Virus record (IMG/VR): IMGVR_UViG_3300045988_147821
Coordinates: 32,001-96,000 of that record
Length of the DNA stretch: 64,000 bases
Reading direction: 5' to 3' (one strand)
Origin: a virus
Every line of letters begins with the position of its first letter. Within the stretch, counting starts at the first letter, position 1. This document shows, piece by piece, positions 2,168 to 47,757 of the stretch. The position numbers were made by a program, and so were the translations under genes. The notes beneath the pieces were generated by a model, which worked only from the letters and a program-made list of their open reading frames with translations, did no database searches and was not told the origin of the DNA.

Positions 2168-2839
2168 TTATTTGCACAAAACAAAACCTTTTGATTTAGC
2201 GTAGTTGTACAAGTTCTTTCCTACTGTGTTTGCATAGGAATCAAGCATGTATGTTTTGTAATCATCTTCGATTGACTTCTGAATGTTTTCATCAGCCTTT
2301 TCGTAAAGATTTTGCAACAGACTCTTGCAGAACTCACGCTGTCCTGTAACACTTACTTCCAACTTACCGTTTTTTTCATTCATTTCAGTGTCAATGGATT
2401 TTTCGATAGCAGACAAACCCATATCACCCTTAAACCCCGGAGCGGTGTTTTTTGCCATTGCATCAAATCTTTCATTGATTGACTTGTTCAGTTCAGCAAA
2501 ACCTTCTTTCATGCCTGCAACGATAGAAGCAGAAAGGCTTTCTCTGAAAGATTTGAGAACATCAGCGTCAAGTCCTTTTTCAACCTTGCCTTCTGAATCC
2601 TTATCTTCCTTGTAGTCCTTTTCATCTTCCTTCACTTTCTTTTCAGCATCAACAGCAGCCTTTTCCTCCTTGTCGATCTTTTCTTCCTGCTTAGTTTCCG
2701 ATTCGTTATCCCCGGCTTTTGCAGATTTTTCGATACGGATATTTCCGGCTTCGATTTGTTCAGCGATATATTCATCACTGAAAACAGCTTGAAGTGACTT
2801 GAACACTTCGTTGTCTTTGTATTCTTCTAAGTTTATCAT
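2168..2839 (-). CDS. scaffolding protein (putative)
   Basis: 223 aa, highly acidic and lysine-rich, low complexity (KEEKAAVDAEKKVKEDEKDYKEDKD), located between protease and MCP. Confidence 0.6.
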   Translation of the reverse strand: MINLEEYKDNEVFKSLQAVFSDEYIAEQIEAGNIRIEKSAKAGDNESETKQEEKIDKEEKAAVDAEKKVKEDEKDYKEDKDSEGKVEKGLDADVLKSFRESLSASIVAGMKEGFAELNKSINERFDAMAKNTAPGFKGDMGLSAIEKSIDTEMNEKNGKLEVSVTGQREFCKSLLQNLYEKADENIQKSIEDDYKTYMLDSYANTVGKNLYNYAKSKGFVLCK

Positions 2840-2870: not shown

Positions 2871-3650
2871 TTATTCTGTTTTTCCGCTTACCATCTTCAT
2901 GTAATCCATAAGAACGGATTTATTTACATCCCCATTTTTGACCGCACAAACAAGTCTGTCAAAATCATCCTTGGAGAACTCCTTCTTATTGACAATGGAC
3001 AATTCAAGGCTCTTGTTTACAATAATAACATTTTTACCGCAATCCACTTTCAATAAAGGCAGATTATCCTCATAAACAAAGTCACCATTAGGAATATAAA
3101 AATCCTGTTTCTGCATACCCTTAACAATATCGGCATACGTATTACCGTTTACTGGATTCATTGTAAGGGCCACATTGGTAATCAGTGTTTTTGTTATGTG
3201 TTTAGGATTATCCTTATCTCTTTCCAACGCCTTTCCTTCAATGGAGAATCCTGGGGTACGCTTTGGTTCAGACTGTTCCATTTCAAGTGCTGTATCGTAG
3301 AATGCTCTTGCTTCGGAAGATTTGCTCCACAACTTACATTTCAAATAGAACTTATTTTTCTCAACCTTTGCTTCCAACGGAACTCCTATAAAGAAGCGAC
3401 TTTTGTTTATTGGGGAACGTGTAGGAAGATGATCTAAATTAATCAATCCACGCTTCTTGAACACGTCAAGAACAAAGCCGTTCGGCTCCATAGAATCACC
3501 TTCAAAGTCCTCTGAATTGTCAGAAGCAAGACCTTCAAATATCATATTCTGATATCTGCGATCATCACCTCTTTCATAATCCAACGGATTGAATTTTGAT
3601 TTATGAATGATGGCTTCCAGTGTGAAATTTAATCTGTTATCGTCAAACAC
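2871..3650 (-). CDS. prohead maturation protease
   Basis: EGLASDNSEDFEGDSMEPNGF..GLINLDH and GFSIEGKA match the phage prohead serine protease pattern (EG.AS..D..G ... H ... G.S.GG). Position in the head module agrees. Confidence 0.7.
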   Translation of the reverse strand: MFDDNRLNFTLEAIIHKSKFNPLDYERGDDRRYQNMIFEGLASDNSEDFEGDSMEPNGFVLDVFKKRGLINLDHLPTRSPINKSRFFIGVPLEAKVEKNKFYLKCKLWSKSSEARAFYDTALEMEQSEPKRTPGFSIEGKALERDKDNPKHITKTLITNVALTMNPVNGNTYADIVKGMQKQDFYIPNGDFVYEDNLPLLKVDCGKNVIIVNKSLELSIVNKKEFSKDDFDRLVCAVKNGDVNKSVLMDYMKMVSGKTE

Positions 3651-3769: not shown

Positions 3770-5809
3770 TTAATGTAATTGTAATCGGTATATAGACTGT
3801 TTTGTCTTGACAAGAAAATCATCAATCAATGACAGTTCACCAAAGTAATCTTCATCCCCGTCCAACGATTTACGGAATTTGGTTGTTCTCTCAAACAACA
3901 GTTTGATGAACTTCAACGGATCAGATTCTTCGATTTCTTCCGATTCAACCGTATTGGCATCAAATCGCCCGAACAATGCCTGTCCTGATTCGGCAAGAGT
4001 ATCCTTAAAGTCATTCATCAAGTCACCCACTTCATCAAGATACACATGTTTAGAATTATCTTCTTCTGTCCAATGAAGATTGTCCTTACGGGTAATCATA
4101 CCCTGTAAGAAATTGATATAGGAGAGAAAATCGGCTTTCTTTGTCTTTTCAGATTTCTCTATATCATCATTTTCCTTTTTGACATCGTTTTCAACGGACT
4201 TATTTATTTCTTCGTTCCTTCTCAAACCATTTACATAAATACAGTTATGGTTAAACTTCCATTCCTGTTCACCGTTATCAGGAGTGATTACCTTGACTGA
4301 AAAATCAGCGCATCTCCCGGACACTTTCTGTATCATGCCCAACATGTCAAAGAACTTTTCCGCACTTTCGGAATTTACCCCCGAATAACTAAAAGAACCT
4401 TGTCCATATACATCTTCTATCGGCTTTTCATCAACCTCCACATATTTCTCCGAATACTGTCTTTTCTTGAATGAAATAGCCTTCTCCACCTTATCGTCAC
4501 CGTTTTCAACACCTGAACCCTGTGGACCAACAACTTCTTCTTTAAGACTTTCAGGAGCGATTTCCCCAGCATCGGCAGTAGTCATGGCTTTTTCTTCAAC
4601 ACCTGTTTCGTTTTCCGACTTCTCAACCTTTCCTTCTTTCTTCTCTCCCCATGATTCAGGTAACTTGTCTGTAAGACCAAGTTCCTTTGCACGTTTTCTT
4701 ATCCATGCCTTTACTTCTGATTTGGGCATGTCGGATGCTCCTACAAGACGTATGGCATCATGTAAATCCTGTTCGTTTCTGATAGGATATTTACCGTTCG
4801 GCATCGCTTCACCTTTCTTTGCAAGATCCTTTCTTTCTGAATGAGAAAAATAAGTTTTGTTCTGCGCTTTCAAAACTTCATCAGGATGCTCCTTACAATA
4901 GGTGTCAAATACTGATTTGCTGATATATCCTTCCGAATATGCTTTCAGTATCCTTGTTATACCGCATGAATCGTCAAGACCCATAATTCTTTTCAGATTC
5001 TCTTTCATATCGAAAATAAAGTTGTAATTATCAATTTTATCCAGTTTTATCCATGCAGAACCAACTTCCTCTTCGCTGTCAAGTAGGATGCTTGCACCTT
5101 CCTTTTCATCAAGAGTGACCATATAATAGTGAATGTCCGCATCGTTGTTTTTATAGGTGGCTACCTCACGTAAACGGTCTGCGGCCACCTCTATTCCCGT
5201 TTCCTCCCACAATTCTCTACGTGCAGCTACTTTAAATTCTTCTCCTTCATCTACATGACCTCCGGGAATACACCAATCATCCGTTGCCTCTCCCATATCG
5301 GTACAACGGTTAAGGATAAGTATTTTTATCCCATCGGGAGTGAACTTCTGAACAATAACATCCGCATATTTCACGGCACCCTTGCTTTTTAGAAAATCAA
5401 AGTACACAGATTTTGTTATCTGTTTCTTTTGATATAGGTATCTCATTTTTTCCGCCTTGTCAATCTCCTTGATTGCAATAGAAAGATCCTTGTCGGATGA
5501 AATGGATTTCATCACGCTCTCATTCTTTATAACAAGGCCACGTAAATCGGATACTTTTATCCCCTGTTCCTTGATAAAATCATCATATCGGTTCATTGCA
5601 TCCTTCATATCTTCATCCATTTCACCTTTCTCCATGAACATGGACTTCAATGCGGACATTTCAGAGAAAGACTTGGCAAGTTCATTTCCCTTGTCTTTGT
5701 ATTCATAAGACTTACGGACAGCACTTCTATATTTTCTAAGTTTATCCGAAGCAGTTTCTAACCCAAGTAAACTTCTTATATTCATAATCAAATTTTTAAA
5801 TAATCTCAT
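3770..5809 (-). CDS. 679-aa head-module protein with an internal Nudix hydrolase domain
   Basis: Perfect Nudix box GX5EX7REUXEEXGU: GHVDEGEEFKVAARRELWEETGI (residues 184-206, about 4985..5377 for the domain). The flanking regions are of unknown function. Confidence 0.85.
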   Translation of the reverse strand: MRLFKNLIMNIRSLLGLETASDKLRKYRSAVRKSYEYKDKGNELAKSFSEMSALKSMFMEKGEMDEDMKDAMNRYDDFIKEQGIKVSDLRGLVIKNESVMKSISSDKDLSIAIKEIDKAEKMRYLYQKKQITKSVYFDFLKSKGAVKYADVIVQKFTPDGIKILILNRCTDMGEATDDWCIPGGHVDEGEEFKVAARRELWEETGIEVAADRLREVATYKNNDADIHYYMVTLDEKEGASILLDSEEEVGSAWIKLDKIDNYNFIFDMKENLKRIMGLDDSCGITRILKAYSEGYISKSVFDTYCKEHPDEVLKAQNKTYFSHSERKDLAKKGEAMPNGKYPIRNEQDLHDAIRLVGASDMPKSEVKAWIRKRAKELGLTDKLPESWGEKKEGKVEKSENETGVEEKAMTTADAGEIAPESLKEEVVGPQGSGVENGDDKVEKAISFKKRQYSEKYVEVDEKPIEDVYGQGSFSYSGVNSESAEKFFDMLGMIQKVSGRCADFSVKVITPDNGEQEWKFNHNCIYVNGLRRNEEINKSVENDVKKENDDIEKSEKTKKADFLSYINFLQGMITRKDNLHWTEEDNSKHVYLDEVGDLMNDFKDTLAESGQALFGRFDANTVESEEIEESDPLKFIKLLFERTTKFRKSLDGDEDYFGELSLIDDFLVKTKQSIYRLQLH

Positions 5810-6209
5810 CGCATACTAAAATACCGTCAGCAAAATAACTATGCGCCCGATTTACTTCAAGAGAATAGCATATCTTATTGATAGTTTCCATCTTTTCAAT
5901 ATCCACTATCTTCTTTATCCCTTTCAAAGTTAATAAACTATCTCCCTTTTTCAAATCCTTGACATATCTCCATCCATCTTCCGACATAACAAGCTGCACT
6001 CCTTGAAAACGATAACCTACAATATCATCATCACATCTTATATTATAGGAAACATCATATTTGGTTGCCAATTCCTGAACAAGTTTCTTGGCTATATGAT
6101 AGCTTTCCTTATAGGACATGACAGACATACCAACAACAATATCTTTGATGTATTTGTCACCCTCTATTGTCCTTATCGCTGTAAAACCCGAATTGAATCC
6201 CATAATCAT
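5796..6209 (-). CDS. free-standing Hint (intein-like) domain protein, catalytic residues degenerate
   Basis: Block-A-like GFTAIRTIEGDKYIKDIVVGMSVMS, a post-block-B-like DGWRYVKDLKKGDSLL, and block F/G-like YSLEVNRAHSYFADGILVCDE. There is no Cys1 and no terminal HN. ATGA overlap with the upstream ORF. Confidence 0.6.
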   Translation of the reverse strand: MIMGFNSGFTAIRTIEGDKYIKDIVVGMSVMSYKESYHIAKKLVQELATKYDVSYNIRCDDDIVGYRFQGVQLVMSEDGWRYVKDLKKGDSLLTLKGIKKIVDIEKMETINKICYSLEVNRAHSYFADGILVCDEII

Positions 6210-6829
6210 TCCTCCCCTTTATATTCTGACTTGTTTCCTGTCAACACCCGTGCACTCTCCATATCCAATGCACGCAAGAAAGTATCTTCCATGACATAGG
6301 AGAATCCCGGCTCACATTCCACTTCATATATAGTAGATGTTACGGGAATACGGGTAACATTCATATTGTGCCGTCTGTAATAAATGATATTTGAACCGTA
6401 TGACATGGAATTTTCCGGCCCGATATCAGGCAAGCAATAATTCCCTTCAAGAACTTCACTCACTTTCTTTGTTATGAACGGCATCCATACCACATCATTA
6501 GGATTGTCGGGTATTTCCTTGCACATGATAAGAGTATCAGGGTGCATCAAGGGGAAACACGTTTTCTTTCCGACATAGTTCTTAAATTCCAATCGAAGCA
6601 AATCCCCCTCATATTCGATAGGGGTAACGCTTACGATGGTTCCATCGCAAAACTTCATGGAATTTCGGTCAAACAGCAAAGTAACAGGAGAGCCTTGCAC
6701 TGTTCTAAATGTCTTGTCACCTGTCATAATTCGTTTGTTTTCCTGTAACTCATTAAGAACTTTTGGGCTTTTAATCCCAAGAACATTCTCGTAGACACAC
6801 TTTATTCTTTGTCCTGAATCCAAAAACAT
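6206..6829 (-). CDS. free-standing Hint-like domain protein (divergent)
   Basis: Starts MFLDSGQRI (Met where an intein Cys1 would be). Contains PLMHPDTLIM (block-B-like His) and IYEVECEPGFSYVMEDTFL (block-F-like). Confidence 0.45.
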   Translation of the reverse strand: MFLDSGQRIKCVYENVLGIKSPKVLNELQENKRIMTGDKTFRTVQGSPVTLLFDRNSMKFCDGTIVSVTPIEYEGDLLRLEFKNYVGKKTCFPLMHPDTLIMCKEIPDNPNDVVWMPFITKKVSEVLEGNYCLPDIGPENSMSYGSNIIYYRRHNMNVTRIPVTSTIYEVECEPGFSYVMEDTFLRALDMESARVLTGNKSEYKGEE

Positions 6830-6847
6830 GATTATAGGTTTTAATTG

Positions 6848-8890
6848 TTAAACATCAAATTCCTTAGTTCCAACCTTGATATGAATTTTGGATTTTCGTC
6901 TTACCTTTCTTTTCTCTTCTTTCATAGGAGAAGTGACGAACATCCTTAATTTTTCATCCCATTCATCAAACATCGGGTTGTAGTATTGGAGCGAGCAACG
7001 GCAATTACCTGATACACATACCTTATTGTTTCTACGAATAATTAACGTATGATTTCTTTCCAATTCAACATCATATATATATCCCTCATATTCTATGACA
7101 TTTTCCTGTATTCTTCTTTTAAGATTGTACTTATTTTTTAATACATTTATCCATAAAATATCATTCTTAGATATATATACCTTTCCCCTTTTTACATCAT
7201 TATAATACCGTTTACCTGTATTTTTAAAAGAAGGTCTTTCTCCGGTTTTTAAAATCAATTCACCCAAATCATCAGCCAATCTTTTACTAGTTGTTATATA
7301 ATGAACTTGTGGCTTAAATTGATACCCTTTCCACACTTTTCCTTTATGAATAGTACCATCTCCAAGTCTAAATGCTTCTAAAAATAAAGAAATGTTTTCC
7401 GAAGTTGTTTGCTTTATAAAATCAGGAACATATCTTACATCTTGCTTTCCTAAATTATAGAAAAACAAAAGTAATTCAGGTTTACTGCAAGCAGAAATAG
7501 TGATTCTATCTTTATCATTTCTAGCCTTTTCCCCAAACAAAGAAGAAGAACATAACCACATCTTTTCCTTAACCTCTTGCTTTAATTGAATCAATTGGAT
7601 TAATTTTCTATCTTCAACCAATGTTCCATCTGAAAGCCAATAGCCCAAAAATTCACAAAACAACTTAAAATCATACTTTATTCCATCAAACTCAATATAC
7701 TCTAAATCAGTTCCTTTCCATTTAGGTATAGTAACTAAAAAGGTAAAATCTTTAGGAAGATCGCTTTCCTTTACTAACAATATATTTCTACCCCTTCCTT
7801 TATTATACTTATTTGTACCAACATGTACATGATTAGGGGTTGTACAAAGGTTATAATCTCTACTAACTCTTTCTATCATAATACCTTTATATTGTTGGTT
7901 TATATACTTAATTGCTTGCACATATTCACCTTCACCAGAACTAGGATTAACTGACAAAAATAATTCATCACCCTTTAAGTCTTTAAAAAACATAAACCCT
8001 TTGTCAGTAAGAACCTCTGTTTTATCATCATAACAGAAAGGGTGCGTAGCCTGGACAGTAGGAAGCCATTCTCTCTGCCTTCTCCCTACGTTGGTCCCAT
8101 TGGCAAGCAATTCTTTCAGTTTGAAAATTTTGGGCCTTGAACCAAGTCCATTTGTAGTAAAGAAACGTATGCAATATGAGCATGCACCATTGAACACTGT
8201 CTTATATACAAGGGCATCCTCACCATGCAAGTCAAGAATACTAAGTGCAGTTCCTTCCTCAAAGATATTCTGCATCTCTGTTTCCATGATACGAAGCCAG
8301 TCCTTTTCCCATATCTGCGTTCTATGACCTATGTCACTTACAATCTGTTTTATAGTCTGTTTTTTATTGAATACAGCACCATTCATAACAGCTTCCTGAA
8401 TCACCCTGCGTTCAGCTTCTGCCTGTGCATTGTCATATTGGGATGCAACCTCTCCAAGAATAGCTTCTGCCACATCCTTTTTCATCTTATCTCCAAGACC
8501 TTTGAGATAGGTATATGTTTTTGTAGCCGCCACACCAAGCCGCATTTGATCTGTAAGCGTCAATTGGGAAACCTGTTCGGATGATACGAATTTATAAAAG
8601 TCAGCATATCCTAATGATGCAGTCTGTCTTGGTTCAAGAACTCCGGCAAGTCTACCGAAAATCATGGCCTGCTGATATGGTGGGATTCGCTTCATCTCCT
8701 TTTCAAAATCAAAGTTGAACTCTTTAAGGAGTTTCTTGTCTGATTCCGAAATAAACTGTTTCCCCAACACTTTTACGATAAGACGAACAAGACGATAGTC
8801 TATTATTCTGAATATCCTCTTGATTACTCCGTCCTGTTCATAAAAAGGTGGATAAAACCTCAAATCCTTATCTATCCTGTTTTCTGCCAT
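6848..8890 (-). CDS. MuF / SPP1 gp7-like head morphogenesis protein interrupted by an intein
   Basis: The exteins rejoin to CSYC...LPTVQATHPF|CRCSLQYY, which is the C..C ... HPxCRC signature of Mu F-like minor head proteins. The gene lies next to the portal. Confidence 0.75.
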   Translation of the reverse strand: MAENRIDKDLRFYPPFYEQDGVIKRIFRIIDYRLVRLIVKVLGKQFISESDKKLLKEFNFDFEKEMKRIPPYQQAMIFGRLAGVLEPRQTASLGYADFYKFVSSEQVSQLTLTDQMRLGVAATKTYTYLKGLGDKMKKDVAEAILGEVASQYDNAQAEAERRVIQEAVMNGAVFNKKQTIKQIVSDIGHRTQIWEKDWLRIMETEMQNIFEEGTALSILDLHGEDALVYKTVFNGACSYCIRFFTTNGLGSRPKIFKLKELLANGTNVGRRQREWLPTVQATHPFCYDDKTEVLTDKGFMFFKDLKGDELFLSVNPSSGEGEYVQAIKYINQQYKGIMIERVSRDYNLCTTPNHVHVGTNKYNKGRGRNILLVKESDLPKDFTFLVTIPKWKGTDLEYIEFDGIKYDFKLFCEFLGYWLSDGTLVEDRKLIQLIQLKQEVKEKMWLCSSSLFGEKARNDKDRITISACSKPELLLFFYNLGKQDVRYVPDFIKQTTSENISLFLEAFRLGDGTIHKGKVWKGYQFKPQVHYITTSKRLADDLGELILKTGERPSFKNTGKRYYNDVKRGKVYISKNDILWINVLKNKYNLKRRIQENVIEYEGYIYDVELERNHTLIIRRNNKVCVSGNCRCSLQYYNPMFDEWDEKLRMFVTSPMKEEKRKVRRKSKIHIKVGTKEFDV
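7004..8035 (-). mobile_element. class-1 intein with LAGLIDADG homing endonuclease (344 aa, residues 286-629)
   Basis: N-terminal CYDDKTEVLTDKGF, block B TPNH, two LAGLIDADG motifs (LGYWLSDGT, LEAFRLGDGT), C-terminal VCVSGN followed by +1 Cys. Confidence 0.85.
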
Positions 8891-9080
8891 AATCTATCAG
8901 TTCTTCCGTTATCTGCTTTATCATGTTAGAAATTTCATCCTTATAGATGTCGTTGGCCTCACTCTCATATACATCCTGAACCTTTGGGAAAGGAGGTTGC
9001 TCCTTTGTCCGGGATTTATAGAATATCTTCCCATCAGGAGCAATCTTTTTAATGAATTGAAGTCCTTTTTGCATTATCAT
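8868..9080 (-). CDS. hypothetical small protein
   Basis: 70-aa ORF translationally coupled (overlaps) between the portal and MuF genes. Confidence 0.5.
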   Translation of the reverse strand: MIMQKGLQFIKKIAPDGKIFYKSRTKEQPPFPKVQDVYESEANDIYKDEISNMIKQITEELIDYGRKQDR

Positions 9081-10843
9081 TCACCTCCAAACATCTTGTT
9101 GATAACTTCCGTGGCCCTGTCCATGATGGGATTGTCACCATACATGGATTTGTATTTTGCAAATGGATCTTCTTCCTCTGCTGCCACATTGGATGATGGT
9201 TGCTCTTCCTCATTCTCCACACCTTCCACTTCACCTCCGTTCATCTGACCTCCCATGGCAGCAGCGTTATCCTTGTTGATTTTATAATTCATCCATACGG
9301 AATTGAGGATTGTGTCCTTTTCAGGATTGAACGGTCTGCCTGAATATGCTTCAAAAGCATCCTCCAATGAGATCATTCCTGCTTCAAGTTTCTTCTTGTC
9401 GATTTCCACTTTCAATGCTTCATCTTCAAGATCAACGCCTGTAAAAGCAAACTCGAATGATTCATCAAGTTCCGATACAAGATATCTTGTTATGATTTCT
9501 TGTAGGAAGGATAACATGGGTTTAAGACCTTTCTCACGTGAATGCTTTAATCTCTGTCGTTGGCCGTCCTGTCCGAACATCTGTGCGGATTCCTTGAACT
9601 GGAATCCTAGTTCTGAGGGGTCTATACGATAGACAGAACATATCAGCACAATAAGGAATTGGTTCCATAAATTGTACTCCATATCCTTGTTGTTTTTGGT
9701 CAAATCAATCCATTCAACCTGTGATTGTGCCAAAACAGGGATTCTTCCTGCGTTTTGAGGTCCTGCCATCATTTGATACCACATTTGCCTAAACTCGTTC
9801 AAAGTGGTTTGGGAAACATTTTCACCCTTGATATTCAACAGACCTTTGGGGAATACGCCATTCTTGAATGAATTACCATTGGATTGTAAGGACCATAAGA
9901 ACCATGTCACAATCTCATTGAGTGTTTCAAGTTCCGAAACCCCGTATCCGTTACGGTAGACATCGGTTGACTTGTTACGCACCCCGAAACCGAGTTCCCA
10001 CGGGTAATAGACGATTGATTCGCCTGTGACGGGATTTTTGAGAATCTGATTATCCCACACCATACAGTAGCGGGGCAAATATCCCTTAAACCGATATTTC
10101 TCGAACTCCTGCCTGTTCCGTGGGTCAACCGCACCAAGGAAACGTACAAGTGACGCGTCCACCGCCTTGAATCTGTCAAGTTCCCACATCCTGTTTCTTG
10201 TGGTTTCAAACGCAAGCTGGTCAAGTGTCAGCGAATCAAACGAAATCTTTCTTATGAAGTCGGGAAGGGTATCATAGTTATCCCATTTGTCGGTGTTGCC
10301 ACCTCGTTCCAGGAACTCCACGATTTTTTCTACCTTCTTCTTGTCTTTCGATGATAAAGACAAATCTCCCGGATCAAACAAACCTCTTTTCTTTCTGATG
10401 GTATAACCTTCCTTCTGCTCGTCATCGGAGAAGTGCAGGAAGTTCTGTATCTGCTCTATACGTGTGTTTACGATGGCCCTTACAAGATAAATTCCACCCA
10501 TTCTACGTAACGTACTGAATGGAAGAATACCTCTTTGAGCAAGATAATCACGTCCACTATCGTTCCATACCTGCGGATCAAAGAAAACGGATTGAAGTTT
10601 TCCATTATCCGAAGTCTTTGAACCAAGATACAGATTTGCTTTCATCACATCTTCCACATCCCTAGACATCATAGAAGATTGTAATTTTGATTGCAAAAGC
10701 ATGGGAACAGTCTTGCTTAATCTGTCCAGTTCATTGAAATCAAGGGAAGCCAAAGACTTCAACAAGTCAGGCTTCCCATTTTTATATGTATTTTTCCGTT
10801 TTCTACTCATTTCTGCAAAAATATTATGCCGAAGCTCCAGCAA
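9077..10843 (-). CDS. portal protein (putative)
   Basis: 588 aa, immediately upstream of the MuF-like gene, with an acidic C-terminus. An alternative start at 10810 (MSRKRKN) avoids overlap with the upstream ORF. Assigned by synteny and size. Confidence 0.6.
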   Translation of the reverse strand: MLELRHNIFAEMSRKRKNTYKNGKPDLLKSLASLDFNELDRLSKTVPMLLQSKLQSSMMSRDVEDVMKANLYLGSKTSDNGKLQSVFFDPQVWNDSGRDYLAQRGILPFSTLRRMGGIYLVRAIVNTRIEQIQNFLHFSDDEQKEGYTIRKKRGLFDPGDLSLSSKDKKKVEKIVEFLERGGNTDKWDNYDTLPDFIRKISFDSLTLDQLAFETTRNRMWELDRFKAVDASLVRFLGAVDPRNRQEFEKYRFKGYLPRYCMVWDNQILKNPVTGESIVYYPWELGFGVRNKSTDVYRNGYGVSELETLNEIVTWFLWSLQSNGNSFKNGVFPKGLLNIKGENVSQTTLNEFRQMWYQMMAGPQNAGRIPVLAQSQVEWIDLTKNNKDMEYNLWNQFLIVLICSVYRIDPSELGFQFKESAQMFGQDGQRQRLKHSREKGLKPMLSFLQEIITRYLVSELDESFEFAFTGVDLEDEALKVEIDKKKLEAGMISLEDAFEAYSGRPFNPEKDTILNSVWMNYKINKDNAAAMGGQMNGGEVEGVENEEEQPSSNVAAEEEDPFAKYKSMYGDNPIMDRATEVINKMFGGE

Positions 10844-12317
10844 GTTGATTAAGTGCCACAGTAGCTTCTTTTCCGCCCTCTGTTGCCGTTACCACCGCCG
10901 AACCTGTACGGACTGCGCCTGTATTTGCGGCTGCAACTACCGAATAATCCGTAGAGCCTTTAGTAAATCCCGTGCCGGAAACAACTGTCGTATAAGTTAC
11001 AACAATAGGTGCACCTGAATCCTTTCCGTTCACTTTCTTCTGCTTATTTGAAGTAACGCCAAACACCTTGGTTTCTCCAGCTGCGGCAAATTGAAGTGAA
11101 GTGGGGTCAACTGTAAGTTCATATTCATAAGTTACAGTGGCTGCGGACTGGGTTAAAGTTATTTCGGCAGTCTTTCCACCTTCACTTGCAGTAATGGTAA
11201 CTTTTCCTGTCCGCTGTGATTCGGTTGTATTTTCAGCCGCAACAACTGTTGTATCATTACTACCTTTCGTAAATCCTGCTCCTGAAACAGTAGTCGTGTA
11301 ACCTACATTAACAGGAGAACCTGAATTTTTACCATTTACCTTCTTCTGCTTTTCGGAAACCACATTAAATGACTTGGATTCACCCTTTGCAACGAAAGCA
11401 ATACTTGTGGGCGTAGGAAGCAAAGAATATTCGTATGTAATGACGGATGCTGCCTGTGTAAGATCCACTGTCACACTCTTACCACCTTCATCCATAGTAA
11501 TGGTTGCAGTTCCCTTTCTCTGCGTATTACCTGGATTTTCAGTCACCTTAATGTTGAATCCATCGGAAATGGCTTCATGGGAGAATCCTGCTCCGGCAAG
11601 TTCTATATCCGTACCTATCTTTGTAGGAGCCCCTGACGGTTTTCCATTTACCACAGTCTGTTTGGTTGAAGTAACGGTCACTTTCTTTGTTTCTCCCGTA
11701 TTCACAAATAAAAGTGTCTTTGGATCTACCACCAAATTGTAAGTATAGGTTACAGTGGATGCAGCTTGCGTAAGGTCAATAGTAATCTTCTTATTGCTCT
11801 CATGCTGTGTTACGGTCAAAACCCCGTTTCTTATGGAATTGGTAGGATTTTCAGGAATTGTCACCGTTCCACCTTCACTTACTGCATAAGGAAGTTGTGT
11901 TTCAAAGTCAACTTCCAACGGTGTTTGTACACCTGTCGGCTTTCCGTTTACATAAAGTTGCTTATAGGAAGTAACAACAGCCTCTATGCTGTCACCTTCC
12001 TTGGGAAACGCCATTGTCTTATCTTGCGGAATAAGAAAATAACGCATCTCTTCAACTATATCAACAAGAATCTGTTCCTTTCCTCCCAACTCTTCTGGAT
12101 AAGCTATAAGTTGCAGTGCATGGTTTGTGGCCCATTGTTTGAATACTCCGATATTATAGGTCAGTCCGGCACGTATCACAACACCCATACCCTCATAATA
12201 TTCCCTGTCACCTATGACATTTTCAGTCACAAAAACATTCATTTGGCTGTCTATGCCATCAGTAATGACCGTTAAACGGTGACTTTCATCTCTATTTATA
12301 AACAACAGCCGTAACAT
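10824..12317 (-). CDS. virion surface / decoration protein with four tandem BACON-like Ig repeats (putative)
   Basis: Repeats of about 95-100 aa with the pattern L.F.a.GE.K.f.V.S.KQ..VNGK.SG.P ... N....R.G..ti....GGK...i.LtQ. The N-terminal about 30 aa are shared with the next two ORFs. Confidence 0.6.
   Translation of the reverse strand: MLRLLFINRDESHRLTVITDGIDSQMNVFVTENVIGDREYYEGMGVVIRAGLTYNIGVFKQWATNHALQLIAYPEELGGKEQILVDIVEEMRYFLIPQDKTMAFPKEGDSIEAVVTSYKQLYVNGKPTGVQTPLEVDFETQLPYAVSEGGTVTIPENPTNSIRNGVLTVTQHESNKKITIDLTQAASTVTYTYNLVVDPKTLLFVNTGETKKVTVTSTKQTVVNGKPSGAPTKIGTDIELAGAGFSHEAISDGFNIKVTENPGNTQRKGTATITMDEGGKSVTVDLTQAASVITYEYSLLPTPTSIAFVAKGESKSFNVVSEKQKKVNGKNSGSPVNVGYTTTVSGAGFTKGSNDTTVVAAENTTESQRTGKVTITASEGGKTAEITLTQSAATVTYEYELTVDPTSLQFAAAGETKVFGVTSNKQKKVNGKDSGAPIVVTYTTVVSGTGFTKGSTDYSVVAAANTGAVRTGSAVVTATEGGKEATVALNQLAGASA
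10827..12020 (-). repeat. in-frame tandem repeats (4 x about 95-100 codons) inside ORF 10824..12317
   Basis: Repeated peptide blocks TVTYTYNLVVDP / VITYEYSLLPTP / TVTYEYELTVDP and ...LTQAAS / LTQSAA / LNQLAG. Confidence 0.8.
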
Positions 12318-18901: not shown

Positions 18902-19019
18902 CAAAGGTAGACAATTTAAATTTTACTCCCACATTATTTAAATAAAATGTTATCTGTATGTTAATTTAATGTTAAAACATGAAATTATTTTTGGATAATT
19001 AAAGTAACCAATTAAATTT
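18902..19019. promoter_or_regulatory. divergent promoter region
   Basis: Minus-strand TACCTTTG (18902..18909) and plus-strand TAAATTTG (19012..19019), each about 35-40 nt from its start codon. Confidence 0.55.
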
Positions 19020-19053
19020 GCAACATGAAAGTTGAAATAAAATTTAAATAATA

Positions 19054-19518
19054 ATGGAAACAAGAATAACAATAGCGCAAATGGATGAAGCGTTGGAGAA
19101 ATTCAAGCAGAAGATATCATCCGATTTCATAGTAGGAGGAAGTCTTGCCCTCTATCATCACGGATTCGAGTGCACTCCCGGTGACATTGACATGGAGATT
19201 GAAATCGGAGAGGGTGACGGGAACATAATTGAAACGCTGTCCGTGCTCAATGAAACCTATTACGGCAACAATGATGCGAGCAGGTATCCTACAACGGAGC
19301 ACCATTACAGATTCAGTTTCCACGGTGTCATATTTGACGTGTGGGCAGTAAACAGGTTCAGTTATAAAGGATACATGCTATCCATTGACGGAACACGTTA
19401 TGCGGACGTGATGAGCGTCCTAAGGGCGAAACGCAAGATAGGAAGAACAAAGGACGTCAATTCCATTGCCGATTACGCATCACAGATATTATCCCTGTTA
19501 AAGGAGGACAAGCAATGA
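19054..19518 (+). CDS. minimal nucleotidyltransferase-fold protein (MNT-like)
   Basis: GGSLALYHHGFECTPGDIDMEI fits the G[GS]-x(9-13)-DxD motif. C-terminal KRKIGRTKDVNSI resembles the K..R.KD..D motif of small NTases. Confidence 0.5.
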   Translation: METRITIAQMDEALEKFKQKISSDFIVGGSLALYHHGFECTPGDIDMEIEIGEGDGNIIETLSVLNETYYGNNDASRYPTTEHHYRFSFHGVIFDVWAVNRFSYKGYMLSIDGTRYADVMSVLRAKRKIGRTKDVNSIADYASQILSLLKEDKQ

Positions 19519-19688
19519 AACGTTTTCTGGCCACATTGTTCATATTGGCGGTATCGTTCATACTGATGTCTATCCTGTTCATGCCGGAAGAAATTCCTGA
19601 TGTTGATAAAAACATAAAAGAGAATTTTGACTATTCAAATGATAATTGTAACTTTGCCACCAAAACTTTAAACAATATTTTAAAATGA
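19515..19688 (+). CDS. small membrane-anchored protein (57 aa, below the ORF-track cutoff)
   Basis: MKRFLATLFILAVSFILMSILF.... ATGA overlaps with both neighbouring genes. Confidence 0.45.
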   Translation: MKRFLATLFILAVSFILMSILFMPEEIPDVDKNIKENFDYSNDNCNFATKTLNNILK

Positions 19689-20023
19689 ACAAGATAAAAC
19701 AGCTATTGAGATGCCGGGGATTGAAGGCGAAGGATATGGCGGAAGCGTTGCAGCTTTCCGAAACAAGGATGAGCCAGATATCGAACGGTGCTTCCACAAC
19801 GGAAGAAACGAAAAGACGGATATGTGAATGGATAGGGGAACCGTTATGGATAGTGTTCCCGGAAGATTACCCCGACATGGCGGGGATGGTGGAGAAGGGA
19901 AATTGTGACAAGGTATCCATCACAAGTACGGGCAACAACCCCTATTTCTTTACGGCTACGGCCAAGATAGACGGGAAGCCCGTATATCTGGAAGGTGTCG
20001 CCCATAAAGTTGAGAAGGCATGA
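19685..20023 (+). CDS. XRE/Cro-type helix-turn-helix regulator
   Basis: LKAKDMAEALQLSETRMSQISNG is a typical HTH_XRE core. Confidence 0.65.
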   Translation: MNKIKQLLRCRGLKAKDMAEALQLSETRMSQISNGASTTEETKRRICEWIGEPLWIVFPEDYPDMAGMVEKGNCDKVSITSTGNNPYFFTATAKIDGKPVYLEGVAHKVEKA

Positions 20024-20277
20024 TTGACATACGTGAATTGAGAATCGGTCAGACGGTAAGGTTTGACCAGGGCTTCGGAACGATAGAGGGTCTTAGAAGC
20101 ACACGGTACATGGAGTGGGATACGGGTGACAAGACAGGTACGGTGACCGTCAGGGACGTATCGGGAGTGTATTACCTGTGTGATCTGGAGGAAATATCCA
20201 TCCCCTCACGGGAAGAGATAGACGGATTCCTCAAAGTGGTGGACGACATAAGGAACGGTTTTTACGAAAATGAATGA
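20020..20277 (+). CDS. hypothetical protein
   Basis: 85-aa ORF, ATGA-coupled. Confidence 0.5.
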   Translation: MIDIRELRIGQTVRFDQGFGTIEGLRSTRYMEWDTGDKTGTVTVRDVSGVYYLCDLEEISIPSREEIDGFLKVVDDIRNGFYENE

Positions 20278-20432
20278 CCGATATGGGAAACAGAAGAAGG
20301 ATAAGACCGGGATATGTGAAAGTATGGGAGCAGAAAGCGAAAAAACGCGGAACTGCAACCCTTACAAGCGATAACAGTAAGGACAAACTATTAAAACTAT
20401 TTGGTGCCTATGGAAAAGGAATAGAGAAATGA
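20274..20432 (+). CDS. hypothetical basic small protein (52 aa)
   Basis: MTDMGNRRRIRPGYVKVWEQKAKKRG.... ATGA overlap with the upstream ORF. Confidence 0.35.
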   Translation: MTDMGNRRRIRPGYVKVWEQKAKKRGTATLTSDNSKDKLLKLFGAYGKGIEK

Positions 20433-20588
20433 GAACGCGCGGTCCGATTCCGAATGAATCATTTTATAAACATAAAAACATAAAAAGTGATAATTATCAG
20501 GAACCGCAATATTTACGGAAACGGATTGTGTACGGGTGTGGACCGTATGGGTGGCACCCGTTTAAAACCTTAAAAACCGAATGATTAT

Positions 20589-20813
20589 ATGAGAACAATA
20601 AAGGAAACAACAAGGAAACTGCTTGAATTTTTCGAGATGGAAAAATTGACTGTAAAGGACATGCTAAGGGCATTGTACTTCTCCCTTTCACTCGTGAACA
20701 TCGTCATAATGGGAGGAATAGGATCGTCATGGACACTCATGATCGCCCTTGCCGTATTCATACACGCCACATGGCAGTTCGTAAAGATAGGGAGGAACCT
20801 GCAAGATGAATGA
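20589..20813 (+). CDS. small membrane protein
   Basis: 74 aa with a hydrophobic segment LSLVNIVIMGGIGSSWTLMIALAVFI. Confidence 0.45.
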   Translation: MRTIKETTRKLLEFFEMEKLTVKDMLRALYFSLSLVNIVIMGGIGSSWTLMIALAVFIHATWQFVKIGRNLQDE

Positions 20814-21186
20814 GTTCGGAAAGATATGTACGGAGGTGAACACCCGTATAGTACAGGACACGGTGTGGTTCTCCTATTACAGGATAACGGACGATGATCC
20901 GTTCGGGATAGACAATTACGTCAACGAGTTTGTCGCACGCATAGGAAGGGAAAATGGAAGGAAGTTCAAGTTCCGTGTCCTCATGAACCGCAACACCCAT
21001 GACAGGCTGAACGAAGCCTATTCAAGAAGGATACCCATGTTCGACCAGGGACAAGAGGAACCCGTAAGGAAGGTGGATATCAGGATAATCATATCCATGA
21101 CAGGTTCGGCAGTAACCGTAACGGAAAACATGGCACTCGAAGATGACATCATAAGAATAGAAGCAACCAAAATACAGAAGATATGA
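20806..21186 (+). CDS. hypothetical protein
   Basis: 126-aa ORF overlapping its neighbours. Confidence 0.5.
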   Translation: MNEFGKICTEVNTRIVQDTVWFSYYRITDDDPFGIDNYVNEFVARIGRENGRKFKFRVLMNRNTHDRLNEAYSRRIPMFDQGQEEPVRKVDIRIIISMTGSAVTVTENMALEDDIIRIEATKIQKI

Positions 21187-21593
21187 AAAAGCTGAAAACA
21201 GGAAAAGAAAGGATGTTCGCGATGGCAGACGCATTCACTGCATCCATCATGCTGGTATTGACCAAGGAATCACTCGTCTATATAGGGGATGAAAACCTGT
21301 ACGTGTCGGAGGACGGAGAAGTGTCAAGACATGAGATAACGGGTGCCATGGCACTTGCAATGACAGAAGTGATGGACCAGATAGGGCTTGGCAACGGCAA
21401 GCGGCCCACAAAACTCAACGAACTCCTACACATCCTTACCGATACCGTCATAGACATGATATCCGACAGGTGCGTGGAGATGGCAAGACAGGAAATGGGC
21501 GCGCTACCCAATGACAGGGAGAAGGAAGAATCCACGGAGAACAATATCGAAATGCCCATGATATTCAACAACGACAACCAGAAACCCAACTGA
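21183..21593 (+). CDS. hypothetical protein
   Basis: 136-aa ORF, ATGA-coupled. Confidence 0.5.
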   Translation: MKKLKTGKERMFAMADAFTASIMLVLTKESLVYIGDENLYVSEDGEVSRHEITGAMALAMTEVMDQIGLGNGKRPTKLNELLHILTDTVIDMISDRCVEMARQEMGALPNDREKEESTENNIEMPMIFNNDNQKPN

Positions 21594-21606
21594 AAATAAA
21601 CACACA

Positions 21607-21861
21607 ATGATAACGGTTATAATAAGAAACGACAGGTTCCGCATATTCATGACGGACAATATCAACGAACAGCCGATAGAGTTCGTATCGAACAGTGAAT
21701 CAAAATATGTCATGGGATTCACCAACCATAACAAACGGGTGCGGATATGGAAGATGGGAAGAAACACACCCTACGATCAGATGGTGAATCAAATGACGGA
21801 TGATAATGTCGTGTTCGATGCACCCTACAACAATACCTGTATAATAGACAGGAGGGAATAA
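21607..21861 (+). CDS. hypothetical protein
   Basis: 84-aa ORF, last gene of the plus-strand block. Confidence 0.45.
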   Translation: MITVIIRNDRFRIFMTDNINEQPIEFVSNSESKYVMGFTNHNKRVRIWKMGRNTPYDQMVNQMTDDNVVFDAPYNNTCIIDRRE

Positions 21862-22084
21862 ATTGCAAAAAACAGAAAGTGGTGAATGATTAGGAAAAGT
21901 GATATAGGAATAGGGAGGGGGCAACAGGATATGTTTTTTGTCCATTAATGTTTTTACCAAAAACCTATGCAAAAACAGGTAACGGTGTCCGTCACGGACG
22001 GTACGTTACCATTTCCCCAAACAGCAACAGGCAACTTGTAATAATTCTCCATAATAAATGATTCTTTTTATAGTTTAGATTTGG

Positions 22085-23185: not shown

Positions 23186-23266
23186 AAAACCTATCAAAAC
23201 CTATCAAAACCTATCAATTCCTATTTCAAAACCATTCAAAAAACAGCCCTCAAATCATTCAAAACC
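23186..23266. repeat. 10-bp phased direct repeats (AAAACCTATC x3 plus 5 degenerate units) next to an A+T-rich block
   Basis: aaaacctatc aaaacctatc aaaacctatc aattcctatt tcaaaaccat tcaaaaaaca ..., followed by tactactattactattattataatccctattaat. Confidence 0.8.
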
Positions 23267-43187: not shown

Positions 43188-45226
43188 TCAAATTTTACAT
43201 TAGCAATTCCATTATCCTTCGTAACCACGATACTCCGTATATTGTCACGAACACGACTTATCTGTGTGGTAATCAGACAGGGCTGTTTCAGGAACTCCAA
43301 CGAACGGATAATATTCTCTATTCCCATCGGATCGGAAGCATCCAGCACTTCATCCACATATAGAAAGTGAAGTCCTCCCCACGGATTGGTAGTATTAATC
43401 ATGGATTGTACCGCAAGAATCATGGCTATTTCCGCTCTTGCACGCTCTCCACCCGAATAATACCAATATGTTTCCATCTCATCACGGAAAATATAGGGTG
43501 TCAGTTCCTCTTTCATCTTCCCTTTGGAATCAAGTTTGAACGCTTCTATTATGATTCTCAAATCAGAATCCATGGCATCCAATGTATCGTTCGCTTCCGC
43601 CTGAATATTCTTTATCTGCTCCACAGCAAGATACATCTTGAACTCCTTGAAACGCGCATACCATCTTTCGGTATTTTCACGTTCAACATTCAATGCAAAT
43701 ATATCATTTTTAATTTTTTCAATCAGTCTTTCCTCTTGGTTTATATTCTCAATTATGGGTTTTTGAAGGTCAGCCAGATTATCAAGCGGCTTCTCTCTCA
43801 AATCATCCAATTCCTGTACGTGACGTTTGATTGAATCATTGTACACATCAATATCCTTGTTGTGGTTTTCAATCTGCATGATCATTCTTTCTATCACACT
43901 GTCGGCTGAATCATGTTCACGTTTCCAATAGGAAAGATTCTGTTCTTTCTGTGAGATTTTATCCTCTATTGTCTTGAATCTTGTCTTTGCATTGTTCAAA
44001 TCAGTTCTTATCTCTGAAATTGCAGTAGAATATTCGGAAAGAATGGAATCGTATTCGGAAATTGACGAAATGATCTTGTCCATCTTTTCCGAATATTCGT
44101 TTATGGATTTCAATACCTCTTTCTTTCTCTTTTCCGTTTCCTTCAATGTGGTTCCTTCTTCCAATAGGAACCTATGGCCGCATTCAGGACAGATTATTGC
44201 ACCTTCAAGAGTTGTATTAAGACGTGTAAGCATTGACTTGTATTTGGCAATTTGGGATTCTATCTTGTACTTATCATCAGTCTTTCCCGACTTCTCCGAT
44301 TTAACTCCGTCAACTTCCTTTTGAATCTCATCGGCTATCTCCTTCTGTGTTTCAACAAATGCGGACGCTTCTTCAAGTTTATTTCTTTCATTAATAAGTT
44401 CTGATTCAGCGTTTTTTATGTTTTCGTTTAAGGATAGCTTCAACGTTTTCTTATCTTCTATCGCCTGCTTTAGTTCCTCTATTTTTATTTGGGATAATTC
44501 TATCTTCTTTTTATCCGACAGAATCCTGTTTTCTATTAGGAATAATTCCTGTTCACGCTGTTCTTTTAGATGATCTACGGACATATTGTCAAGTTGTTCG
44601 CTGTAAACTTCCATCTTACTTTCGGATGCAACAATCTTGTTTTCGAGAGAACGGATTTCCATTTCCAATTTCCTTACCTTGCCGTCAATAATCTCTTTTG
44701 TCTTGTCTATGTCATTGAAATTGATAAAACGGCTTATCAACGCCAATTTATCCGTATTGGATGAAGTAAAGAATGACTTATAATTTTCCTTGGATATGAT
44801 GTAATAGGTCTTTGCATCTTCGGCCGTTATACCCAACCATGCGGATATTATCTTGTTCCCCTCATTGATTGTACCATAAGGTTTCTCCACTCCATTGAAT
44901 GTAATGGATAGAGTTGCCGAACCCTTGATAGGAATGGTTCTTCTTACAATCATTTCCACATTTCTTGCAGGACATACTATTGACACCTCAACTTCCGCCT
45001 TGTCCGTTCCACGTCTTACCAGCTTCCTGTCCAGATTCTTTCTTAGGTTGTCACCGTAAATCGCATAGAACAGGGCATGAAGTATGGCTGATTTTCCGGC
45101 ACCATTGGATTGCTGCCCTTCATCCGTATTGTTTATCCCTATGATTGCCATAGGGATATTTTTAAAGTCAATGGTAGCTTCTTCTATTGAACAGAAGTTC
45201 TTTATATACAAACTAGTTATTCTCAT
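43184..45226 (-). CDS. sbcC: SbcC/Rad50-like ATPase
   Basis: Walker A NGAGKSAIL, long coiled coil with CPECGH zinc hook, signature YYSGGERA, Walker B FLYVDEVLD. Confidence 0.85.
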   Translation of the reverse strand: MRITSLYIKNFCSIEEATIDFKNIPMAIIGINNTDEGQQSNGAGKSAILHALFYAIYGDNLRKNLDRKLVRRGTDKAEVEVSIVCPARNVEMIVRRTIPIKGSATLSITFNGVEKPYGTINEGNKIISAWLGITAEDAKTYYIISKENYKSFFTSSNTDKLALISRFINFNDIDKTKEIIDGKVRKLEMEIRSLENKIVASESKMEVYSEQLDNMSVDHLKEQREQELFLIENRILSDKKKIELSQIKIEELKQAIEDKKTLKLSLNENIKNAESELINERNKLEEASAFVETQKEIADEIQKEVDGVKSEKSGKTDDKYKIESQIAKYKSMLTRLNTTLEGAIICPECGHRFLLEEGTTLKETEKRKKEVLKSINEYSEKMDKIISSISEYDSILSEYSTAISEIRTDLNNAKTRFKTIEDKISQKEQNLSYWKREHDSADSVIERMIMQIENHNKDIDVYNDSIKRHVQELDDLREKPLDNLADLQKPIIENINQEERLIEKIKNDIFALNVERENTERWYARFKEFKMYLAVEQIKNIQAEANDTLDAMDSDLRIIIEAFKLDSKGKMKEELTPYIFRDEMETYWYYSGGERARAEIAMILAVQSMINTTNPWGGLHFLYVDEVLDASDPMGIENIIRSLEFLKQPCLITTQISRVRDNIRSIVVTKDNGIANVKFE

Positions 45227-46709: not shown

Positions 46710-46713
46710 AATA

Positions 46714-47757
46714 TCAATCTCCCAATGCTTTTTGTAATATATCACTTGCTTCGTCTGCATTATATTTCTTTTCCTTGCAGAATGAAGCAAATCTGTCCAT
46801 AATATCCGTTTTTGTCAAAACCTTTATTTCGTTAACCTTATCTTCCGCATCTATAACTTCCTCAACTTCCTTTATCTTGGGCTTTACATCAATCCCCATT
46901 GCGGAATACTTTGTCCTATCAAATGCGGAAACTTTGTCCTGTGTTCCTGTGACCTCTATTCTGATACGATCATTGTCGTTTCTTTTGGAAGCATGAAATA
47001 GGGTTATCTGTTCCTCCACTTCATCTGGTGACATGGTATCCAAGTCCACGGTTATTTTCTTGAATGATGAACGCTCGGATTTTATAAGTTCTGTTGTACC
47101 ATCACTATACAGGATATAAAACCCTTTTTTATCATCTTCACCAAAGTTGTTCTGACACAATGATCCAAGATGGATTATTGATTGTGTGACATATTGCATA
47201 TTGTGATAGTGGCCACTTAGGACAAATTTATACTTTTTCAATACAGTAGGGGTCAACTTGCTGTCCACCTTGCTTCCATCATTGTTGCAGCTTCCGTCAA
47301 AAGCCATGTGGGTAAACAAGATATCAGCTTTCTTATCCTTTATATTCTCAAATTCATCCAGCCATTCCTTATCAGAAAGAAACGGCATGAAAGCCATTTT
47401 CAGTCCTCCTATTTCCTTGATTACCCCATCACGTAACAGAACAAATGACGGATGGTATTTGTACGGGTCAAGAAACGAATTTTTTGACGTGTAATCGGTT
47501 TTATCATGGTTTCCAGGAATGACAAACATCTTCTGCTTGTTGTTATGATAGGAATCGAGTATGTTTCCAAACGTATTCAACACACATTCCTTTTGACTTA
47601 TACGGGAATCAAATATATCCCCCAACCATATATGCGTATCTACTTCCATATCCTTTGCAAGTTCAAGTTCGTCTTGCAGAAGGTTGTTTATAAGTTCACA
47701 GTTATCTGGCTTCAAGTGCCAATCGGTACTTATGATTGCTATCGGTTTTACTTCCAT
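46714..47757 (-). CDS. sbcD: SbcD/Mre11-like nuclease
   Basis: Calcineurin-like phosphoesterase motifs STDWH, GDIFD, GNHD, THMAF and SGHYH. Confidence 0.85.
   Translation of the reverse strand: MEVKPIAIISTDWHLKPDNCELINNLLQDELELAKDMEVDTHIWLGDIFDSRISQKECVLNTFGNILDSYHNNKQKMFVIPGNHDKTDYTSKNSFLDPYKYHPSFVLLRDGVIKEIGGLKMAFMPFLSDKEWLDEFENIKDKKADILFTHMAFDGSCNNDGSKVDSKLTPTVLKKYKFVLSGHYHNMQYVTQSIIHLGSLCQNNFGEDDKKGFYILYSDGTTELIKSERSSFKKITVDLDTMSPDEVEEQITLFHASKRNDNDRIRIEVTGTQDKVSAFDRTKYSAMGIDVKPKIKEVEEVIDAEDKVNEIKVLTKTDIMDRFASFCKEKKYNADEASDILQKALGD

Follow-up and report, generated by a model that had tools for sequence, protein, structure and literature searches.

What is a Hint domain, encoded as a gene of its own, doing among the head genes of a phage? 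The question is raised by a stretch of 64,000 nucleotides (nt), positions 32,001 to 96,000 of the IMG/VR virus record IMGVR_UViG_3300045988_147821 (the window, to which all coordinates below refer), where four tightly packed open reading frames (ORFs) lie on the minus strand between the genes for the portal and the prohead protease. The original prediction, made from the sequence alone, read them as a MuF/gp7-like protein (6848-8890), two Hint-only ORFs (6206-6829 and 5796-6209) and a 679-amino-acid (aa) protein with a perfect Nudix box (3770-5809), and proposed a disassembled cassette in which Hint domains assist the targeting or release of a capsid-packaged, injected Nudix effector. The four ORFs were confirmed in place, and a fifth, of 70 aa (8868-9080), is found with them. 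What we see is the stretch from portal to protease in the head-morphogenesis module of a gut phage rich in inteins, and our analysis shows it to be an ordinary head module with three additions, namely a mobile intein, an orphan gene in a variable slot and an inactive Hint domain, together with a multi-domain Nudix protein whose active site is intact. The whole picture, in which an intein-split MuF-like gene, the slot orphan, a retained but inactive Hint protein and a Nudix protein serving as capsid cargo stand side by side, is one that we hold, on balance and if only just, to be correct.

The ORF at 5796-6209 scores 33.3 bits against the pretoxin HINT family of Pfam (PT-HINT; cut-off 27.7; 6.9e-8). 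When the profile of its free-standing family was compared with the PDB, it matched the gp41-1 intein over positions 11-138 (8e-9), the PT-HINT domain of an ADP-ribosyltransferase toxin (8e-7) and a BIL domain (2.5e-3), and the protein aligns end to end with mini-inteins, BIL domains and pretoxin HINT domains (gp41-1, 6qaz; PT-HINT, 6y75; BIL, 2lwy), all of a similar size of about 130-140 aa. A HMMER scan of 1.84 billion representative proteins returned 174 matches at E up to 1e-3. Those from short proteins that cover the Hint domain are free-standing and 134-149 aa long, and the remainder are ordinary Hint domains in longer proteins; among 75 of the best-scoring longer matches, Pfam identified inteins in terminase, PolA and RecA as well as RHS and other toxins, and a MuF or NUDIX domain in none. 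A tblastn search with the Hint ORF over 50,697 phage records gave MT835500 as the sole match.

The catalytic positions were read from three alignments that agree with one another: with the RecA mini-intein, with a custom hidden Markov model (HMM) of 175 Hint domains, and within the family. Position 1 is Gly or Phe (G4 or F5), which leaves no nucleophile; the TxxH of block B is replaced by QGVQ, and in relatives by ISGD, VSGE and similar sequences; and the terminal His-Asn is replaced by Cys-Asp, followed by three residues and the stop codon (...ILVCDEII), most relatives ending in ...NVCIFG. Class 3 intein chemistry was considered and is unlikely, because the Cys close to block F is displaced by two residues and lacks conservation. 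No more than 2-5 residues precede the domain, and the ORF ends where the domain does, leaving no exteins, and since the borders of the ORF are those of the domain the protein has nothing to release. Whereas mini-inteins, BIL domains and pretoxin HINT domains lie within host proteins and retain Cys or Ser at position 1, TxxH in block B and a C-terminal Asn or the class 3 block F Cys, the phage protein stands alone and has lost all of them. Judged from these alignments, it is a genuine Hint domain lacking every catalytic position, one that, by the reading of its sequence, cannot self-cleave and has nothing to cleave.

Loss of the catalytic residues, together with the abundance of inteins in this genome and its relatives (in TerL, RecA, MuF and portal genes), could suggest that the ORF is the decaying remnant of an intein or another selfish Hint element, with no present function. 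An unconstrained relic would be expected to gather stop codons and indels. The ratio of non-synonymous to synonymous substitution rates (dN/dS) of the Hint protein is instead 0.05 in comparison with an 89%-identical relative (L091), in the range measured for other head-module genes (0.028-0.127; 0.041 for the major capsid protein, MCP), and its length, its borders and about ten positions (F5, S7, T14, G17, K22, D23, G27, R67, G89 and Y115) are kept between lineages that are 30-39% identical. Because of this low dN/dS and the conserved length and positions, the gene is not a decaying relic, and we regard that explanation as highly improbable. Descent of the ORF from one of the inteins of the window itself was also considered and set aside, as no specific similarity to them was seen.

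The setting of the gene was compared across 87 related loci, comprising 80 from IMG/VR, 6 from assemblies and MT835500 (L001); one of them, a contig of 5.9 kb, ends before the Nudix gene, which leaves 86 for counts that involve the latter. Gene order is the same in all: portal, (small ORF), MuF, [slot], Hint of about 140 aa, Nudix, [an optional insert of about 1.2 kb], protease, scaffold, MCP. The Hint gene is present in 87/87 loci and the Nudix gene follows it immediately in all 86 that extend far enough. In the window, with functions assigned by Pfam and PHROGs, the module and its parts are as follows.

10824-12317, minus strand: BACON-repeat protein, 497 aa
9077-10843, minus strand: portal protein, 588 aa (Pfam Phage_portal, 4.6e-18; phrog_12, 4.3e-36), the upstream border of the block
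8868-9080, minus strand: small ORF of unknown function, 70 aa, kept in relatives
6848-8890, minus strand: precursor of a MuF-like minor head protein, 680 aa, made up of a 336-aa extein and a 344-aa intein
7004-8035, minus strand: LAGLIDADG intein in the MuF-like gene, aa 286-629, inserted at HPF/CRC
6206-6829, minus strand: ORF207, 207 aa, lineage-specific and of unknown fold, in the variable slot
5796-6209, minus strand: free-standing Hint-fold protein, catalytically degenerate, of 137 aa (probably 135 aa, with the ATG at 6203 as start)
3770-5809, minus strand: multi-domain Nudix protein, 679 aa, or 671 aa with an ATG at 5785
5024-5326, minus strand: Nudix hydrolase domain, aa 162-262, with the Nudix box at nt 5192-5260
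4658-4972, minus strand: middle module of the Nudix protein, aa ~280-384, motif GKYPIRNEQDLHDAIRLVG
3782-4075, minus strand: Dps-like/DUF5856 four-helix module at the C-terminus of the Nudix protein, aa 579-676
2871-3650, minus strand: prohead maturation protease, 259 aa (phrog_1028, 6.4e-32), the downstream border
2168-2839, minus strand: scaffold-like protein, 223 aa
609-2129, minus strand: MCP, 506 aa (phrog_752, 3.5e-57)

The genes are closely spaced. An 18-nt gap separates the MuF-like gene from ORF207, and the predicted overlaps of 4 nt between ORF207 and the Hint gene (ATGA) and of 14 nt between the Hint and Nudix genes are indeed there, with alternative starts giving gaps of 2 nt (ATG at 6203, which is preceded by GGAGG) and 10 nt (ATG at 5785, the Nudix start that gene callers pick in relatives). 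A frameshift fusion at the Hint/Nudix overlap was considered and rejected, the starts being ambiguous and the spacing different among relatives; here the junctions were read, and no dedicated slippery-site search was made. The 70-aa ORF overlaps the start of the MuF-like gene by 23 nt and is present in close relatives, and distant ones carry homologues of 65-66 aa whose conserved core consists of YPKVQxGYE and a helix. As a candidate Hint fragment this ORF was rejected: its N-terminal half reaches 17.4 bits against the custom Hint HMM, a score attained by 0 of 979 scored shuffles, and the matching stretch is not conserved in the homologues; the match is possibly due to chance.

The invariant succession of MuF, Hint and Nudix genes (86/86) speaks for a disassembled MuF-Hint-effector cassette, one in which the Hint protein or proteins still aid the targeting, processing or release of the Nudix effector, for example in trans. 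This explanation gains from the best Pfam match of the Hint ORF being the pretoxin HINT family, from the role of HINT as a releasing peptidase of polymorphic toxins (PMC3482391) and from the probable status of the Nudix protein as capsid cargo. The proposed part in release or targeting does not agree with a free-standing protein without exteins that lacks the residue-1 nucleophile, the block B Thr and His and the terminal Asn, residues that are not conserved in its family either. Nor do we find anything from which the cassette could have been disassembled: MuF, Hint and Nudix are fused in none of the 87 loci, and the short full-domain matches and the 75 longer ones described above offer no fused ancestor or relative. 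The polymorphic-toxin survey lists MuF systems with papain-like, not HINT, peptidases (PMC3482391), and the paper on polyvalent proteins does not mention Hint domains (PMC5512222). In MuF polymorphic toxins and polyvalent proteins (PMC3482391, PMC5512222) a MuF-like gene likewise stands beside an enzymatic domain in the packaging or head module; in those, MuF and effector form one polypeptide, the toxins often with an immunity gene, whereas they are separate ORFs in the window and in the 87 loci, so the label fails its defining test. Finally, the cultured Bacteroides phage DAC19 and Chryseobacterium phage MA9V-3 keep the series MuF...Nudix...protease...MCP, with a smaller Nudix protein encoded after the MuF homologue and ahead of protease and capsid, and have no Hint gene; from this we conclude that the Hint gene was added in the group of gut phages with genomes of about 105 kb. 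We consider the cassette a decidedly unlikely explanation, the more so as a second Hint ORF cannot be demonstrated.

That second ORF, ORF207 (6206-6829), is not demonstrably Hint, and of the two predicted Hint ORFs the one at 5796-6209 stands. By eye it is Hint-like (CVYENV..., LMHPD, LEGNYCL, IYEVECEPGFSYV), and as a Hint candidate it was set aside: Pfam, PHROGs and phmmer against the PDB gave no match of any kind, hhalign comparisons with the family of the 140-aa Hint protein and with the 175-domain Hint alignment were not significant (P 0.05-0.25), and the custom Hint HMM gave it 1.4 bits, a score equalled or exceeded by 54 of 870 shuffles. Its AlphaFold model is of low confidence (pLDDT 34), with no intein among the Foldseek matches. 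Relatives were found solely at 87% identity or above, and dN/dS in comparison with L091 is 0.03, also in the range of the other head-module genes measured; ORF207 is thus shown to be a real, constrained, lineage-specific gene.

Across the 87 loci the slot between the MuF and Hint genes is empty in 9, including MT835500, is occupied by ORF207 in 10 and holds ORFs of 185-203 aa in 68. Variable presence in relatives, which the original prediction had named as telling against it, thus characterises ORF207 and not the Hint ORF. The 185-203-aa ORFs have no detectable similarity to ORF207; homology between the two was entertained on the basis of a colinear MAFFT alignment and rejected, as HMM and hhalign comparisons were not significant and a second MAFFT run placed the C-termini differently. 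These ORFs are also Hint-like by eye, starting with MIGYKGDTLV and ending in ...LKTIIHE. A low-confidence model of one (pLDDT 51) has inteins as its top PDB matches (RadA intein, E 0.03; TFIIB mini-inteins; gp41-1) with TM scores of about 0.33-0.40, a lead that would concern the relatives and not ORF207.

Other insertions were seen in the same interval. Genes of the TnpB/IS605 OrfB type lie beside the MuF gene at 6041-7237 (minus strand) of L091 and at 8619-9830 of L001 (MT835500); in one of these relatives the insertion separates MuF from ORF206, in the other it separates MuF from the small ORF. The sequences on either side of MuF are a hotspot for mobile elements. Many relatives also have head-module genes not found in the window, as in L020 (3023-3952 and 8525-9337), where a 309-aa ORF containing a P-loop-like GGGGSGKG motif separates portal from MuF and a 270-aa ORF separates Nudix from protease.

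This plasticity bears on a further explanation, in which the Hint ORF and ORF207 would be late accessory proteins outside the virion (an assembly chaperone, or factors for host takeover or anti-defence) accommodated at a site of the head operon that tolerates insertions. Variable genes and mobile elements gather between portal and protease, as seen in the alternation of ORF207, 185-203-aa ORFs or nothing, in the 309-aa and 270-aa ORFs of L020, in TnpB and in inteins, and when distant lineages are compared (30-39% identity) both ORFs have diverged more than MCP or portal. The Hint gene, however, unlike ORF207, is invariant in presence and position (87/87), and it is under purifying selection comparable to that on the neighbouring head genes, which fits a core function in the module better. 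An accessory role is accordingly conceivable, and we rate it as rather unlikely, if the most serious of the competing explanations.

One way in which a core function might look is that the dead free-standing Hint domain was exapted as a structural adaptor of the head, docking the Nudix/Dps cargo onto MuF or portal during procapsid assembly, or governing the exit of that cargo. In most relatives two Hint domains may then stand in tandem, if the slot ORFs of about 200 aa are counted. This proposal is speculative and in our estimate unlikely; were it true, it would amount to a Hint role unrelated to self-cleavage and to an undescribed way of loading capsid cargo. More generally, if the Hint protein is a component of the virion or of its assembly, it would represent a clean exaptation of a selfish-element fold. 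The head module displays side by side the behaviour of Hint-type elements in phages, in that active inteins are gained and lost (in the TerL, RecA, portal and MuF genes) and a single Hint domain is retained as a normal gene. In the literature we found no description of a free-standing Hint gene that lacks catalytic residues, is under purifying selection and has a fixed place in the head module of widespread gut phages.

The gene upstream of the slot, predicted to encode a MuF/gp7-like protein, is a MuF-like gene interrupted by a mobile LAGLIDADG intein. The insert (aa 286-629) begins with Cys1 (C286), has TPNH in block B and ends in ...VSGN629/C630 (slashes mark the junctions), with Gly at the penultimate position, where His is common; it carries an endonuclease with two LAGLIDADG motifs (Pfam LAGLIDADG_3, 2.3e-5, above the cut-off). 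Excision joins ...THPF to CRCS... and yields a protein of 336 aa, and intein-less 336-aa alleles in L002-L004, L006-L008, L010 and L011 are 99% identical to this predicted product, without gaps, other near-identical contigs keeping the 680-aa form. The G+C content is 29% in the intein vs 40% in the extein. An intein, full-length or mini, occupies the same HP[FY]/C...SGN/CRC site in 12 related loci of diverged lineages, and splicing of the precursor would restore the conserved HPF-CRC motif.

Inteins in genes of the MuF/gp7 type are of a kind already known from actinobacteriophages, in whose SPP1 gp7-type minor capsid genes they are likewise sporadic among close relatives (Gosselin et al., bioRxiv 10.1101/2025.01.02.630785). 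Those carry solely non-canonical homing endonucleases, whereas the intein of the window has a canonical in-frame LAGLIDADG endonuclease, sits at an HPxCRC site and belongs to a Bacteroidota gut phage.

The minor head assignment itself is supported by a remote similarity to phrog_115 ('minor head protein'), matched by 7 of 8 family members at 3.2e-5 at best, with some members also matching phrog_2841 or phrog_4728, and by the position of the gene next to portal in all loci. The Pfam family Phage_Mu_F (PF04233) was matched neither by the spliced extein nor by any of the 8 family members at E up to 1, and the family profile had no match in the PDB. In the alignment of the eight sequences the pattern CxxC...HPFCRC is conserved, which is in keeping with the minor head assignment; as a lead, CxxC...HPxCRC presumably resembles the MuF motif. 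The label MuF-like can thus be kept for the 336-aa protein in this remote sense, with the 344-aa intein inside its gene as the part that had gone unnoticed.

The window contains at least three inteins (in the MuF-like, TerL and RecA genes). In TerL (59350-62175, minus strand, 941 aa) a 379-aa intein at ~60646-61782, with matches to Hom_end_hint, Hom_end and LAGLIDADG, interrupts the Walker A motif (SRGSGK/CLEPG...VAHN/S), and in RecA (45213-46790, minus strand, 525 aa) a 161-aa mini-intein at ~46056-46538 lies in the P-loop (GGES/CLDG...VVHN/CGKTT). The portal gene of the window has no intein; in near-identical relatives (L004, L005, L007, L009, L010 and many IMG/VR loci) it is polymorphic, with intein-less products of 577 aa, products of 792 aa with a mini-intein, and products of ~896 and 1000-1023 aa with an intein and LAGLIDADG.

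Downstream of the Hint gene, the Nudix assignment was borne out in full. The box is perfect (GHVDEGEEFKVAARRELWEETGI, aa 184-206, nt 5192-5260; pattern GX5EX7REUXEEXGU), the domain matches Pfam NUDIX at 1.1e-17 and solved Nudix enzymes such as PDB 2b06 (2.2e-8), and a perfect box is found in 86/86 orthologues from the related loci. The last ~100 aa show similarity to DUF5856 (9.3e-6 for the segment by itself, which falls short of the Pfam cut-off), to phrog_858 (2.7e-7) and to genes annotated as 'putative DpsA' that stand alone in crAss-like phages. Between the two, the module with the motif GKYPIRNEQDLHDAIRLVG (aa ~280-384) has no Pfam or PHROG match and is the best conserved part of the protein, at 57-71% identity vs 53-57% for the Nudix domain. 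By tblastn it was found at the C-terminus of the GX15bay portal and at the C-terminus of Orf19 of Gordonia phage GMA6, a Peptidase_S78 prohead protease whose gene immediately precedes that of the capsid; one PHROG that carries a portal annotation aligns to the Nudix domain. This GKYPIRN...AIRL module (4658-4972, minus strand, in the window; 5001-5330 in L088 and 5001-5300 in L089), found at those C-termini in unrelated phages, may be an uncharacterised module of the capsid interior.

The fusions to portal and prohead protease in other phages make it plausible that the Nudix protein is packaged in the capsid, and together with the smaller proteins of DAC19 and MA9V-3 the enzyme appears as an old resident of such head modules, its modules repeatedly fused to proteins of the procapsid interior. 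To this extent the predicted capsid-packaged, injected Nudix effector is a plausible reading of head-module linkage and of the fusions elsewhere, and the idea is not new: head-packaged Nudix proteins have already been inferred from fusions to MuF, portal and capsid protease (Iyer, Burroughs, Anantharaman and Aravind 2022, PMC9503650). Those proteins (T4 NudE-like; PMC9503650) likewise belong to the late or head gene set, show linkage to MuF, portal and protease, and are predicted to be injected enzymes acting on nucleotides of the NAD/ADP-ribose (ADPr) type, whereas the Nudix domain of the window is unfused to MuF, portal or protease and belongs to a separate 679-aa protein with YPIRN and Dps-like modules. 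A further likeness is with the internal proteins and Alt of T4, which are encoded with head genes, packed in the capsid and ejected with the DNA, as is proposed here. T4 proteins of this kind have an N-terminal capsid-targeting sequence that is cut by the prohead protease; no such signal was identified here. We put the Nudix/Dps-like protein forward as a concrete candidate, open to test, for an effector of Bacteroidota phages that is injected and degrades nucleotides.

These observations can be arranged in the following course of events, in keeping with the picture of an ordinary head module with additions. The intein, whose architecture and empty allele are seen directly, would be removed from the translated precursor by splicing, which would leave a functional minor head protein. 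The Hint protein would derive from an ancestor of the intein or BIL type, kept as a free-standing gene after its catalytic residues were lost, and would act as a non-catalytic binding or assembly factor made along with the MuF and Nudix proteins. The protein with Nudix, YPIRN and Dps-like modules is most probably an internal head protein; it would be taken up by the procapsid, perhaps by way of its N-terminal or YPIRN module, and once ejected with the DNA it would hydrolyse a nucleotide of the nucleoside diphosphate-linked (NDP-X) type early in infection.

Several points weigh against this account. That the Hint protein works without catalysis is deduced from the residues it lacks, and it could conceivably use an unconventional chemistry; a few family members (P0026, P0072) have a Cys beside position 1. 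The absence of Hint from the cultured distant relatives implies that it is not generally needed for a head-module Nudix. Membership of the minor head protein in the MuF family is remote, with no Pfam match and PHROG E-values of 1e-5 at best, and the association of the Nudix, Hint and ORF207 proteins with the virion is deduced from gene position and from fusions in other phages.

The group is frequent in metagenomes of the human gut, with 119 confirmed IMG/VR matches and many contigs of 100-110 kb; complete contigs of relatives measure ~105-110 kb. A host among the Bacteroidota is indicated by the BACON-repeat gene and by the relatives that infect Bacteroides and Chryseobacterium. The BACON/Ig-like repeat protein encoded upstream of portal varies from ~290 to 515 aa among close relatives, which suggests that repeats have been gained and lost. 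Replication genes in the window comprise a DnaE-type Pol III alpha, an SbcC-like protein, RecA, an SNF2 helicase and an NAD-dependent ligase, a set that resembles the genes reported from the proposed 'Gratiaviridae' of Bacteroidetes (PMC8008677). Searches for tRNAs and Rfam families had no match anywhere in the window. A cluster of small plus-strand ORFs at ~19000-22000 breaks the otherwise minus-strand genome, and the switch of strand accounts for a change of sign at this place in both GC and AT skew. At 23186-23241 lies a short tandem repeat of 10 bp.

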